From the IMG/VR virus record IMGVR_UViG_2585427787_000002: DNA of 13,125 nt; one strand, 5' to 3'. Source of the stretch: a virus. Its lineage: Duplodnaviria > Heunggongvirae > Uroviricota > Caudoviricetes. The notes below the pieces were generated by a model, which worked only from the letters and a program-made list of their open reading frames with translations, had not been told where the DNA came from and searched no databases. The position numbers were made by a program, and so were the translations under genes. Shown here piece by piece: positions 113 through 3,528 of the stretch (positions are counted from its first letter, which is position 1; every line of letters starts with the position of its first letter).

Positions 113-859
113 TCAGCTGATACTGATGCCTGCGGTGGCTTTCTTCATCACCACAACCAGCAAATCGCTGATACTTGCTGTGGGATACCAGTTATTTACC
201 AGCCATGCTGACACCGAAAACTCCAGTGTCATGTGACCGTGACCGGCAGGCATATCAATAACACCACTGTAAATCAGCGTATTATCCAGCGCGGTACGGT
301 TATAAATTTCAGCACCGTTTTTCCGTACTATCAGACGGCATGAGGAGTAAATATCAGTATGCTCTTTCTCATGTTTAGCGCCGCTGAATGCCACCGCCGG
401 AATAACAATCTGCCGGTCAAACGGCTGATCGTCATAAACCCTGACGGTAATGGTTCCTGATGGCCACCGCTCCGGTGCACGGGAGTCCCGGGGGAAAGCT
501 TTGCCCACTGTTTTAACGAGATCGCCTTCAATCTGGTTGGCGGACAATTTTCCCAGAACCCAACAGTTCTCGTTAATCGTGACGTTGTTGAGCGTCCCGG
601 AGTTCGCATTCACGTTACCGCTGATATCGGCATTTTTCGCCGTCAGCCGCCCGTCCGGTGTCAGGGAAAATACCGGTGTATTTCCACCACTGGTAATGGT
701 GGGGGCCGTCAGGCGTTTCAGGAACACGTCGTTCATGAATATCTGGTTGCCCTGCGCCACAAACATCGGCGTTTCATTCCCGTTTGCCGGGTCAATAAAC
801 GCGATACGGTTAGCGGCAACCAGAAACTGGCTCAGCTTGCCTTCCTCCGTGTCCTCCAT
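113..859 (-). CDS. J: Host specificity / central tail fibre protein J, C-terminal fragment (248-aa ORF); out of frame with the upstream J ORF
   Basis: ORF begins [60 protein letters not shown], which matches an internal segment of lambda J. No Shine-Dalgarno before the ATG at 859, so it is probably not translated on its own. The last ~150 aa diverge from lambda J. Confidence 0.85.
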
Positions 860-3528
860 GCTGAGGCCAATACCCGCGACATAATGTTTGCCGTCTTTGG
901 TCTGCTCAATTTTGACGCACTCTGGTCTTCCAGTTTCTTATTGACGGTCTGTGTGATTTCATTGCTGACATCCGTAATGGATGTCCTGATTTCAGCCAGG
1001 TCAGCCGCAAGCTGACCGTTATCAATCTGCGTCCACAGCTCCTGAGCCAGATGGGTTTTCCCTATCTCGCCTTTGAAAAAATCCAGATAGCCGGATGCGT
1101 CATCACTCGGCTGACCGACGGCCTCCACGAATGCCGATTTGCCAACGGTGTTCACACTGCGAACGTAAAAATAATAATCATGGCCCGGTTTGATATTGAT
1201 ACTGGCGGCTATCCAGTACAGCGCCGTGCCAAGATAGCGGGCTGTGGTTTCAACCTGCCTGATATCCGCAATCCGCTTTTCCGAGAACCAGAACTCAAAC
1301 TGTACCGTCGGATCATAAACGGCAAGATGCGGCGTGGCGGTTATCTGAAAATAGCCCGGCGTCAGCTCAATCCGCGACGGCGCTGCCGGTGCGGCAATCC
1401 GGAACGATACCGACGCCGGATCGCCCTGCTGCCCCCAGGCATTTACTGCCCGGACTGTCAGCCTGTAGTTCCCCAGCGCCAGTTGTGTGAAGCGGTAAGT
1501 GGTTTCCGTCGTCCGGGCCGTGCTGACCAGCCGCTCACTGCCGTCATCCGCTGCCACGGTCAGGCGAAGCATAAAGCTCACCCCCTTCACCACCTTCGGC
1601 GTGTCCCAGCGCGCCAGCACCTGATATTCCCCGCTGTCTGCGGTGACTTCGGCAGTCAGGTGCTGCACTGCTGGCGGCGTGACACCATTCACCGTGCCGC
1701 TCTGGTCGCCGTCAAAGTGCGCCCCGTTATCCACGATGGCCTCTTTCTCCGGTACATGCTGCACGGCAGTGATGGCATACGTGCCGTCGTCGTTCTCACG
1801 GATACTCACGCAGCGGAACAGGCGCTGGCGCAGCGTCGGCAGCTTCAGCCCCCACACGCTGTATTCGGCAACGCCGTCAGGAACCCGGCTCACTTTCACC
1901 TTCACGCCGTCGGTGACGGACTGGACCTCCACGCTGACCGGACTCCCCTGCCCGTCAACCAGGCTTATCAGCGTGGTGCCGGAGGATGGCAGCGTGATTT
2001 CACGGTCGAGCGTCAGCGTCCGGGTCTGGCTGTTTACCGCCAGCACGCGCCCGCCGGTGCTGATACCGGCATAGTCATCATCGCAGATTTCAATGACATC
2101 GCCCGGTACATGGCGAAGCCCTTCGGCACCCACGCTGAAGTCCACGGTCTGCGTTTCCAGCAGCTCCGTTTTAATCAGCCACAGCCCGGCGCGGTGTGCC
2201 TGCCCCCGGCTGGTACAGCCAAAAGCATCCATCTTCGTGACGTTACGACCGTAACGGGCAATGGCCTGCGTATCTTCAACAAGCTCTGTCGCCGTCTCCC
2301 AGCCGTTATTCGGGTCAATCCAGTTCACCTCAACGGCATTATGGCGGTCCTTCAGGGCGCTGAAGCTGTAGCGGAACGGCGCGCCATCATCCGGCATCAC
2401 CACATTACTGCGGTTATAGGTCCACACCTTATCTGATGGTCGGTCCTGCACGAACGTCAGCGTCTGCCCGTTCCATACCGGCATACAGCGCATCGCCGAG
2501 CAGAAATCACTGAGCACATCCCACGCCTTGCGCTGTGTGGTCAGGTACGCATTACAGGTGATGCGCGGCTCCGTGCCGCCAAAGCCGTCCGGTACTGACT
2601 GGTCGCAGTACTGGCCGATGACATACAGCGCCCATTTGTCCACATCCGCCGCACCAAGACGTTTCCCCATGCCGTAGCGCGGATGGGTCAGCATATCCCA
2701 CAGACACCAGGCCATGTTGTTGCTGTATGCCGGTTTAAACGTTCCGTCCCAGATACCGCTGTATTGCCGCGTCTGCGGGTTATAGTTCGACGGCACCTGC
2801 AGAATGCGCCCGCGAAGATGATAATTACGGCTCACCTGCTGACTGCCGAACTGCTCCGAGTCCACCTGCACGCCGACCAGTGCCGTGTTCGGGTAGCACT
2901 GTTTCACATCGATGATTTCGGTGTATGACGACCAGAGCGTTTTGTTCTGCAACTGGTCTGTGGTGCTGTCCGGCGTCATCCTGCGCATCCGTATATTGAA
3001 CAGGCGCGGCGGCAGGTTATCCACCACCACCGAGGCCAGATACTGCGAGGTGGTTTTGCCCTTAATGGTGATGTCTTTTTCCGTCACCCAGCCACCATTA
3101 CGCTGTATCTGAACCAGCAGGCGGACTTCCGACGGATTCCGGTCCCCCTTTGAGGTGGTTTCCACCAGTGCCTGCACGCCGAAGGTAAAGCGCAGACGGT
3201 CGATGTTTGCAGACGTAATGGTGCGGGTGATCGGCGTGTCGTATTTCACTTCCGTACCCAGCACCGTCTCGGAGCCGGAGGATTCAAACCCCTCCGGCGG
3301 TGTCTGCTCCTGCTCACCGGCACGGAACACCACCGTGACACCGGAGATGTTGGTATTCCCCTCAGTGTCCAGCACCGGCGTACTGTTCAGCAGCACGCTT
3401 TTTAATCCATCCACCGGACCTTCAACCGGCCCTTCGCTGATGGCATCGATCACACTCAGCAGCTGCGTGGACTTCAGGTTGTCCTTCGCTTCGCGCGGGG
3501 TATGCCCCTTACTGCTGCCTTTACCCAT
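832..3528 (-). CDS. J: Host specificity / central tail fibre protein J, N-terminal 898-aa ORF, ending prematurely after an apparent frameshift
   Basis: N-terminus [34 protein letters not shown]... and most of the length match lambda J as I recall it. The frame ends ...[30 protein letters not shown], while the +1-offset frame from about 916 downward reads [25 protein letters not shown] (the lambda J continuation). The 113..3528 span is 3416 nt, not a multiple of 3. Confidence 0.92.

Follow-up and report, generated by a model that had tools for sequence, protein, structure and literature searches.

A prophage J gene of Escherichia coli is probably a broken mosaic of four known lambda-like modules

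The J gene described here is probably a broken, four-module lambda-like prophage pseudogene with an OmpC-type tip, in which the second and third modules are joined 64 nt out of register. The modules would be a backbone of hub and FNIII domains, a long shaft of the phage 21/640R1 type, a lambda-type β-prism fibre and an Ig-like domain of the 1A2/VT1-Sakai type. The gene would thereby be cut into an 898-aa hub fragment lacking the fibre tip and an untranslated 248-aa fibre/tip remnant.

Identity and context of the J locus

The window, by which is meant the whole stretch of DNA that was analysed, is one entire 13,125-bp contig of the draft assembly GCA_000713095.1 (E. coli 6-319-05_S4_C2). J, its parts and the features that follow it lie on the minus strand. 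Positions 3528-113 were identified from the open reading frame list, translations and Pfam as J, the tip attachment protein or central tail fibre of a lambda-like prophage. The gene is read as two ORFs, 3528-832 (ORF1, 898 aa) and 859-113 (ORF2, 248 aa), which the source record annotates separately as KEM37544.1 and KEM37543.1. All six Pfam families of the lambda-like J domain series score above their curated cut-offs, though they are split between the two ORFs: FNIII-A_GpJ, Phage-tail_3 (the hub domain in the series), Ig_J and Ig_J_second fall on ORF1, and Phage_Tail_Tip and Ig_GpJ_C on ORF2.

The gene order on the contig is H-M-L-K-I-J-lom, with J placed after H-M-L-K-I and before lom as in lambda and five other loci, and the tail genes upstream of J are all complete ORFs as judged from gene calls and Pfam. 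Between J and lom, positions 75-94 hold a hairpin resembling an intrinsic terminator (GGGCGCC-AGAAAT-GGCGCCT, followed by TTTTTT), and an annotated terminator occupies the corresponding place in phage 21. The start of a lom-like gene (MRKVCAAILSAAICL..., positions 1-44), read directly from the sequence, is cut by the contig end; Lom/Ail genes also lie downstream of J in lambda, 640R1, Z1323, 200177 and UMNK88. The lambda G/GT slippery motif GGGAAAG was not found at the expected place near the G/T genes. Rather than a single frame of about 1130-1160 aa, J has a 64-nt gap that leaves 898 and 248 aa. The gene is a lambda-like tip attachment gene by descent and a pseudogene as written. Formation of a trimeric tail tip and DNA ejection triggered on receptor binding have been shown only for lambda J (PMC11101478).

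Block structure of J

Aligned with lambda J, the gene falls into four blocks with amino acid identities of 97.7, 23, 97 and 45.8%, bearing out the block pattern of the original prediction, and the contrast between adjacent blocks (23% vs 97%) is far beyond chance. The N-terminal 820 residues (3528-1069), comprising the hub domains and the FNIII/Ig domains, form a backbone common to all lambda-like J alleles compared. This block is 97.7% identical to lambda J at the amino acid level and 93-97% at the nucleotide level, 98.8% identical to the 640R1 and Z1323 proteins, and 93-98% identical in nucleotides to six of six comparators.

The block that had been singled out as divergent (1068-917) is, by alignment, a truncated α-helical shaft module of the long phage 21/640R1 type. 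Its 51 residues, ending in KKLEDQSA, are 23% identical to lambda, 98% to phage vB_EcoS-640R1 and 96% to phage 21, and the nucleotide identities over 1085-917 are 98.2% to 640R1, 95.9% to phage 21 and 43% to lambda/200177. The block corresponds to lambda J residues 821-864, which are inside or adjoining the α-helical shaft, defined in lambda J as residues 809-861 (Ge & Wang 2024, PMC11101478). Whereas 51 residues of the shaft are retained, approximately 21 are absent.

The central straight fibre, or β-prism (916-617; ...TITSGGN...ADISG), comprises 100 residues equivalent to lambda residues 865-964 and is of the lambda type, being 97% identical to lambda and 71-74% identical to the 21/640R1-type proteins. 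Over 916-713 the nucleotide identity is 100% to strain 200177 as against 69-72% to the 21-type alleles. PDB matches to this module were 8xcj, 8xck and 8iyk, and E values from 1e-106 to 1e-127 were obtained for the J region against solved structures.

The distal 167 residues (616-116), assigned by alignment and Pfam to the '1A2/VT1-Sakai' type, include the 131-residue Ig_GpJ_C receptor-binding domain (508-116; Pfam). Identity to lambda is 45.8% over the whole region (45.7% over 164 aa by tblastn), 40.9% over the Pfam domain and 41.7%, not above 90%, over the last 150 residues. The same 167 residues are 99.4% identical to those of strain 200177, natural alleles with this tip fall between 97.6 and 99.4%, and the tip is 98-99% identical to those of VT1-Sakai, PhiR5_1 and Stx2a phages. 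A private R-to-W change (NENCW; R983W) is found at the fibre/tip junction. Each module is an already known allele, and the gene is thus a patchwork of known modules.

Comparison with known J alleles

Lambda gpJ (P03749; PDB 8IYK, 8XCG, 8XCJ and 8XCK) occupies the same gene position and has the same domain series, namely hub, two FNIII/Ig domains, α-helical shaft, β-prism fibre and Ig-like receptor-binding domain. It differs in that its shaft is of the other type, its tip is the one 45.8% identical to that in the window, it binds LamB, and the window J is interrupted. Solved structures exist for lambda gpJ with LamB and for the homologous A8 gpJ. The latter (PDB 9WCA and 9WCB), an OmpC binder in which a lambda-type fibre carries a homologous Ig-like tip (PMC11338833), is the best PDB match to the window J (E = 1.8e-127). 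However, the two are 62.8% identical over the distal domain, and A8 accepts both K-12 and EDL933 OmpC, whereas 1A2 takes EDL933 but not K-12 OmpC.

The gpJ known as 1A2 is an engineered chimera of lambda J residues 1-964 and a natural C-terminus from an E. coli prophage (PMC11338833). The window J resembles it from the straight fibre onwards, both having a lambda-type fibre up to ...ADISG and then the same distal domain; however, 1A2 is intact and has the lambda shaft, whereas the window J has the phage-21-type shaft, the 64-nt deletion and the private R-to-W change. The combination of fibre and tip that was engineered in 1A2 is natural in the window J, and an intact natural version is present in strain 200177. 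Indeed, the J proteins of 200177 (WP_446848190.1) and UMNK88 (WP_000515470.1) have the same lambda-type fibre and 1A2-type tip but differ in having a short lambda-type shaft and single ORFs of 1131 aa. Phage 21 (UMO75436.1) and vB_EcoS-640R1 (URC10086.1) share the shaft (96-98% aa identity), and the window tip has 96-99% identity to those of 640R1 and VT1-Sakai, but all three phages carry another straight-fibre allele (71-74% aa identity), and the tip of phage 21, a LamB user, is just 67% identical.

The whole of 916-113 (804 nt) matches one intact E. coli J, that of strain 200177, at 99.1% nucleotide identity, and UMNK88 and the other 13 records listed at 98.0%. The tip class was matched in about 4,500 of 5,426 complete E. 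coli genomes. The lambda-type fibre with a 1A2-type tip is one widespread intact E. coli allele. The original prediction had read the block pattern as a recombinational exchange of the specificity module. J is indeed mosaic in blocks, with a tip other than that of lambda, but the exchange did not take place at this locus, because the whole of 916-113 exists as an intact allele in many E. coli genomes; the private join is that between shaft and fibre, at 917/916.

Among 120 database J fragments, shaft and fibre types were strictly linked (61 and 51 cases, with no hybrids), and 1A2-like and A8-like tips were found on both backbones. Co-adaptation of the two structures may underlie this association; when lambda J binds its receptor, the shaft end refolds onto the fibre.

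The shaft/fibre junction

Nucleotide alignments place the junction and deletion point at 917/916 (within 915-918, ambiguous by 1 nt), where 64 nt of the intact phage 21/640R1-type alleles are missing and the frame is shifted. The sequence across the junction is GAGTGC/GTCAAAATT, the slash marking the join, and the best-matching parent changes exactly at the gap. The frameshift that had been placed within the divergent block is thus real in the sequence, but it is no point indel, being instead a 64-nt gap at the 3' edge of that block. Because the deletion shifts the frame, J is split into the two ORFs; ORF1 consists of 871 native residues followed by 27 out-of-frame residues, and this tail (916-832, with its stop codon at 834-832) crosses DNA that natively codes for the start of the straight fibre. 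J is broken, so that no functional receptor-binding protein is encoded by the locus as written and no host range can be predicted from it.

The two parents share 1 nt of identity at the join; the closest resemblance nearby (AATTCAGCAGA / AATTGAGCAGA) is inexact and lies in another register. A microhomology-mediated deletion between AATTCAGCAGA and AATTGAGCAGA was rejected as the breakpoint, since a crossover within this repeat would be in frame and since the window follows the right-hand parent across the whole repeat. Just upstream of the right-hand breakpoint, the two allele families share an identical 12-nt patch (CATGTGGGCTGT).

A 33-mer spanning the junction had no exact match in GTDB representatives, JGI metagenomes or IMG/VR, and no record among 5,426 complete E. 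coli genomes and 50,697 phage records matched window positions 780-1060 with at least 80% coverage. A 30-mer representing the in-frame hybrid of a 21-type shaft and a lambda-type fibre had zero matches in GTDB representative genomes, JGI metagenomes and IMG/VR. Exact-sequence lookup of both ORF products returned the source contig alone.

Receptor of the distal tip

In a frameshift-tolerant alignment of the distal 167 residues with the natural C-terminus of gpJ 1A2, 151 of 159 readable positions were identical; the 1A2 sequence came from supplementary DNA damaged by OCR, and most of the eight mismatches adjoin OCR errors. Two differences are clear, R/W after NENC and GISIS/GITIS. Near-identity to this OmpC-binding tip accordingly extends over the distal ∼ 167 residues.

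With the 1A2 tip, lambda particles are directed to OmpC in place of LamB (Brödel et al., Nature 2024, PMC11338833). The tip was assayed in ΔlamB ΔompC strains complemented with ompC, and delivery reached 98.7% into MG1655 with EDL933 OmpC vs 5.2% into wild-type MG1655; the latter, which has LamB and K-12 OmpC, is barely transduced by 1A2 particles (PMC11338833). By this likeness the receptor of the J distal tip would be OmpC, and a receptor other than LamB is supported. The assignment to OmpC rests on the published 1A2 chimera, from which the J allele differs by the private R-to-W change at the fibre/tip junction.

The original prediction of a different receptor is upheld to the extent that the nearest characterised relative, 1A2, uses OmpC and not LamB, but the broken J predicts no host range. 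Its argument from C-terminal divergence alone does not hold. Phage 21 natively uses LamB, and single J mutations can alter receptor use, as in phage 21 (PMC11336670). The distal domain of phage 21 is nevertheless 48.6% identical to that of lambda and 82% identical to that of the OmpC-binding A8. The window tip, at 41-46% identity to lambda and 67% to phage 21, can be judged only weakly on this scale, as the two LamB users are themselves 48.6% alike. Divergence is a poor guide to the receptor because the phage 21 tip, at ∼ 49% identity to lambda, still uses LamB, and arguing from a different sequence to a different receptor is unsafe among lambda-like J tips. The J protein of Gifsy-1 binds OmpC and has a C-terminus 18% identical to that of lambda (Gifsy-1 paper). 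For the PhiR phages (PV3405xx), whose tip is the same, a literature search found no receptor data, and a preprint on Drexlerviridae gpJ tips (10.64898/2026.04.02.716166) explicitly omits lambda J from its alignment.

Origin of the broken gene

The junction is most likely an illegitimate recombinant that was dead on arrival. It would most likely stem from one recombination event, illegitimate or homology-facilitated illegitimate, that brought together two distinct J alleles: the nearly identical distal sequence would have held one end in place, and the other end would have been joined with no homology where shaft and fibre meet. J is present in a median of two copies, and in up to 14-15 places, per E. 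coli genome, and complete E. coli genomes hold roughly 14,000 copies in all. The more specific proposal, that 917/916 is a real and recent homology-facilitated product of two co-resident prophage J alleles and a dead-on-arrival module junction, is put forward tentatively. Such a prophage could presumably not make adsorbing tails unless recombination with another resident prophage repaired or complemented J.

A less likely alternative is an assembly or library chimera, in which two J copies belonging to separate prophages of this strain have been fused. The 64-nt gap and frameshift would then be absent from the genome, and each true J copy would be an intact ordinary allele, the first of the 640R1 type and the second of the 200177 type. 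Several observations would fit an artefact: the contig that makes up the entire window comes from a short-read draft assembly, J is a multi-copy gene of which this genome probably has several paralogues, the junction is private to the source assembly, and the indel and the switch of parent fall at exactly the same point. However, with 1 nt of identity the parents offer no usable overlap at the join, and neither a k-mer-graph nor an overlap assembler should make such a join without spanning reads; moreover, real E. coli genomes commonly contain J genes that have decayed, undergone deletion or become fused (e.g. P0001, P0005, P0058 and P0102).

The same sequence would also result from two steps, a homologous recombination in CATGTGGGCTGT giving an in-frame, possibly functional hybrid J and a later, unrelated 64-bp deletion. 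This history is improbable: although the shared 12-nt patch adjoins the right-hand breakpoint and prophage J genes often suffer deletions, it would require the deletion to stop within 1-2 bases of the earlier crossover, and the in-frame hybrid is absent from the collections searched and from the 120 J fragments. It is harder still to believe that the split gene is functional, either through a programmed -1 frameshift or through separate expression of a 248-aa fragment that assembles on the truncated hub. The downstream frame is indeed open from 937, overlapping ORF1 by ∼ 100 nt, and has an ATG at 859. However, the overlap (937-832) contains no canonical -1 slippery heptamer (X XXY YYZ) and the ATG is not preceded by a Shine-Dalgarno sequence, on which grounds both modes of expression were rejected; in addition, the ∼ 21 shaft residues would still be absent, the comparator J genes from phages and complete genomes are all single ORFs of 1131-1160 aa, and a simple deletion explains the layout.

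Discussion

The finding has little import beyond annotation: as written, the host-recognition gene of this prophage is a pseudogene of known parts. The lost tip belongs to a very common class among E. coli prophages, for which the experimentally determined receptor, that of 1A2, is OmpC and not LamB. For lambda-like J proteins, receptor calls should be made from near-identity to a characterised tip and not from percentage divergence from lambda. Among the sampled natural alleles, tips swap freely while the shaft stays tied to the fibre, which is relevant to the choice of fusion points in engineered lambda particles. If the junction is a genuine illegitimate recombinant, it would be a naturally occurring case of the raw and largely non-functional recombinants that, it is thought, supply the in-frame mosaic boundaries of phage tail genes through selection.

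Organization of the contig

The window corresponds end to end to contig JORH01000124.1 (13,125 bp), which belongs to the Escherichia coli 6-319-05_S4_C2 draft assembly GCA_000713095.1. On its minus strand lies a head-tail block of lambda-like type, running from capsid and cement through FII-like, Z, U, V, G, T, H, M, L, K and I to J; only the initial 44 nt of the lom-like gene that follows on the same strand are present before the contig ends. Positions 75–94 (minus strand), which separate the J stop codon from the lom start, hold a strong hairpin with a T-run that resembles a terminator and matches in position an annotated terminator of phage 21. 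By Pfam the head genes (11487–13109, minus strand) are not lambda E/D-like, their matches being Phage_capsid_4, Phage_cement_2 and a Gifsy-2-type head-tail protein; with lambda-like tail genes from Z to J, the prophage is thus a mosaic of head and tail as well. The lambda G/GT slippery heptamer GGGAAAG is absent from the G/T overlap (G and T genes, 8959–9725), all four copies in the window lying away from it.

J, the tip attachment protein gene, occupies 3528–113 on the minus strand and is read as two ORFs. ORF1 (3528–832, minus strand; 898 aa; KEM37544.1 in the source record) has Pfam matches to FNIII-A_GpJ, Phage-tail_3, Ig_J and Ig_J_second, and ORF2 (859–113, minus strand; 248 aa; KEM37543.1) to Phage_Tail_Tip and Ig_GpJ_C, the C-terminal receptor-binding domain.

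J is composed of blocks with different relatives

The J sequence was aligned with six J genes: those of lambda (NC_001416), phage 21 (OL657228), vB_EcoS-640R1 (ON470612) and the prophages of E. coli Z1323CEC0015, 200177 and UMNK88. The original prediction had described a protein that follows lambda up to a divergent internal block, returns to near-identity and diverges again at its C-terminus, and every block was recovered at the position predicted. The first 820 aa (3528–1069, minus strand, as are all coordinates below) share 97.7% aa identity with lambda and 98.8% with 640R1 and Z1323; the next 51 aa (1068–917) share 23% with lambda, 98% with 640R1 and 96% with phage 21; the following 100 aa (916–617), which contain TITSGGN and end in ADISG, share 97% with lambda and 98% with 200177 and UMNK88; and the last 167 aa (616–116) share 45.8% with lambda and 99.4% with 200177. 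Over the last 150 aa identity to lambda J is 41.7%, rather than above 90%, and tblastn of distal J against lambda gave 45.7% over 164 aa.

The lambda gpJ protein comprises hub domains, two FNIII domains, an alpha-helical shaft (residues 809–861), a beta-prism 'central straight fibre' and an Ig-like receptor-binding domain, four loops of which insert into LamB (Ge & Wang 2024, PMC11101478). In lambda numbering the block edges lie at residues 820 (end of DFFKG), 865 (start of VKIEQ) and 964 (end of ADISG). The alpha-helical shaft accounts for the divergent internal block and the straight fibre for the block returning to near-identity; the divergent tail comprises the fibre end plus the receptor-binding domain. 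The window shaft is the long version, as in J proteins of the phage 21 and 640R1 type, which at 1159–1160 aa are ∼ 27 aa longer than lambda J (1132 aa). Across the 120 nt at 593–712 the best comparator changes patchwise (UMNK88 97.5%, 200177 95%, 640R1 94%, lambda 86%), as in GGNTPVFSL of the window vs GGNPPAFSL of lambda; this stretch is a micro-mosaic within the conserved zone that appears to be the site of tip exchange.

Receptor of the tip

Brödel et al. (Nature 2024, PMC11338833) joined the C-termini of natural prophage gpJ proteins to the first 964 residues of lambda gpJ, and assayed receptor use in ΔlamB ΔompC strains complemented with ompC. Their chimera 1A2 delivers DNA via EDL933-type OmpC, and chimera A8 via K-12 and EDL933 OmpC alike; the source data give 1A2 delivery of 98.7% into MG1655 with EDL933 ompC and 5.2% into wild-type MG1655 (LamB and K-12 OmpC). 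In the Extended Data Fig. 2 source data, panel C (OmpC-EDL933) has the same 1A2 and A8 values as panel B (OmpC-MG1655); the 1A2 result used here is drawn from the main text, Fig. 1b and panel A, not panel C.

The 1A2 DNA printed in the supplement is recoded after ADISG and OCR-damaged. In a frameshift-tolerant protein-to-DNA alignment with this damaged sequence, the last 164 aa of the window J were identical at 151 of 159 readable residues, and most of the eight mismatches adjoin OCR indels. Two differences are clear, NENC-W vs NENC-R and GISIS vs GITIS. The former (NENC-W-VLG; CGG-to-TGG at 559–561, R-to-W) lies at the fibre/tip junction and is private to the window, R being found in 5/5 natural comparators carrying this tip and in gpJ 1A2; it could represent drift after inactivation or a sequencing error. 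The A8 tip is only 62.8% identical to the window distal domain. Structures have been solved for A8 (9WCA and 9WCB) and for lambda gpJ-LamB (8XCJ).

Near-identity to 1A2 makes OmpC (with an OmpC-allele preference), rather than LamB, the best-supported candidate receptor of the window tip in an intact form. The original prediction, that a different sequence means a different receptor, holds here because a near-identical tip was tested, but its reasoning from divergence is unsafe. Phage 21 uses LamB natively, one J mutation adding OmpC use (PMC11336670), and its distal domain shares only 48.6% identity with that of lambda, 82% with OmpC-binding A8 and 67% with the window tip; thus divergence from lambda alone does not predict a new receptor.

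Module exchange in natural alleles

Exchange of a specificity module, as originally proposed, is real, but it reflects an old, widespread allele and not an event of this locus. Window 916–113 matches intact annotated gpJ genes in one piece, with 99.1% nt identity to strain 200177 (99.8% over 592–113 and 100% over the 131-aa receptor-binding domain) and 98.0% to UMNK88 and to 13 further records among the matches listed. Alleles of the 200177/UMNK88 type combine a lambda-type shaft and fibre with a non-lambda tip, whereas 640R1, Z1323, VT1-Sakai, PhiR5_1 and many Stx phages carry the same tip (96–99% aa) on a 21-type shaft and fibre.

Shaft, fibre and tip were typed in the best 120 database J fragments (P0001–P0120), a sample biased towards relatives of the query. 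Within it shaft and fibre types are strictly linked (61 long-shaft/21-type fibre, 51 lambda-shaft/lambda-like fibre, 0 hybrids), which may reflect co-adaptation of the two, and either backbone can bear tips of the 1A2-like as well as of the A8-like type. There are at least two further shaft/fibre types (P0101, P0091). E. coli prophages commonly contain decayed J genes. Fragments in the sample include an MFS-transporter N-terminus fused to the J fibre (P0058), tail-tube V fused to J (P0102), an unrelated N-terminus joined to the J shaft (P0007) and J with internal deletions (P0001 and P0005).

The shaft/fibre junction and its origin

Relative to intact long-shaft alleles, the window J lacks 64 nt, the missing part coding for ...AIQQIQKVQVDTNNNLNSMWA, and the gap edges (...GACCAGAGTGC then GTCAAAATTGAG...) place the join at 917|916 with a one-G ambiguity. 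As 64 is 3 × 21 + 1, the reading frame shifts, and ORF1 consists of 871 native residues and 27 out-of-frame ones. The gap coincides exactly with the change of parentage: nt identity over 1085–917 is 98.2% to 640R1 and 43% to lambda and 200177, and over 916–713 it is 100% to strain 200177, 97.5% to lambda and 69–72% to the 21/640R1 type. The ORF overlap (937–832) lacks a canonical -1 slippery heptamer, and ATG 859 has no Shine-Dalgarno sequence ahead of it, so that, judged from sequence, expression rescue of the split gene looks unlikely; J as written is a pseudogene. All upstream tail genes on the contig are called as complete ORFs, which suggests that the inactivation was recent.

Among 5,426 complete E. 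coli genomes and 50,697 phage records, none covers at least 80% of window 780–1060, and therefore neither the junction nor an in-frame hybrid is present in those two sets. GTDB representative genomes, JGI metagenomes and IMG/VR contain no exact copy of the junction 33-mer or of an in-frame hybrid 30-mer, and the products of ORF1 and ORF2 are known from this assembly alone.

Per E. coli genome the median number of J copies is two, with a maximum of 14–15. The simplest history would be a single recombination that joined a long-shaft J to one of the 200177 type, with one end anchored in the 96–98% identical distal region and the other joined without homology, 64 nt out of register, a process that would amount to homology-facilitated illegitimate recombination. 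An in-frame crossover in the conserved CATGTGGGCTGT patch, with the deletion following later, is a possible two-step route, although two breakpoints would have to coincide and its intermediate has never been observed. An imperfect repeat nearby (AATTCAGCAGA / AATTGAGCAGA) was rejected as the breakpoint, since crossing over within it would preserve the reading frame and since the window tracks the right-hand parent through the entire repeat. Chimeric assembly of the multi-copy J in this short-read draft contig would likewise place a private junction exactly at the parent switch; such an artefact is nevertheless improbable, as the parents have no usable overlap at the join, so that an assembler should need spanning reads, and deleted or fused J remnants (P0001, P0005, P0058, P0102) are common in real genomes.

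Overall, the observation behind the original prediction is confirmed, and its interpretation is supported in part. What the locus carries is a well-known mosaic gene in broken form, each part of which has close, characterised relatives. The sole mildly interesting reading is that the junction may have arisen as a natural 'failed' join of modules, placed where two domains meet.
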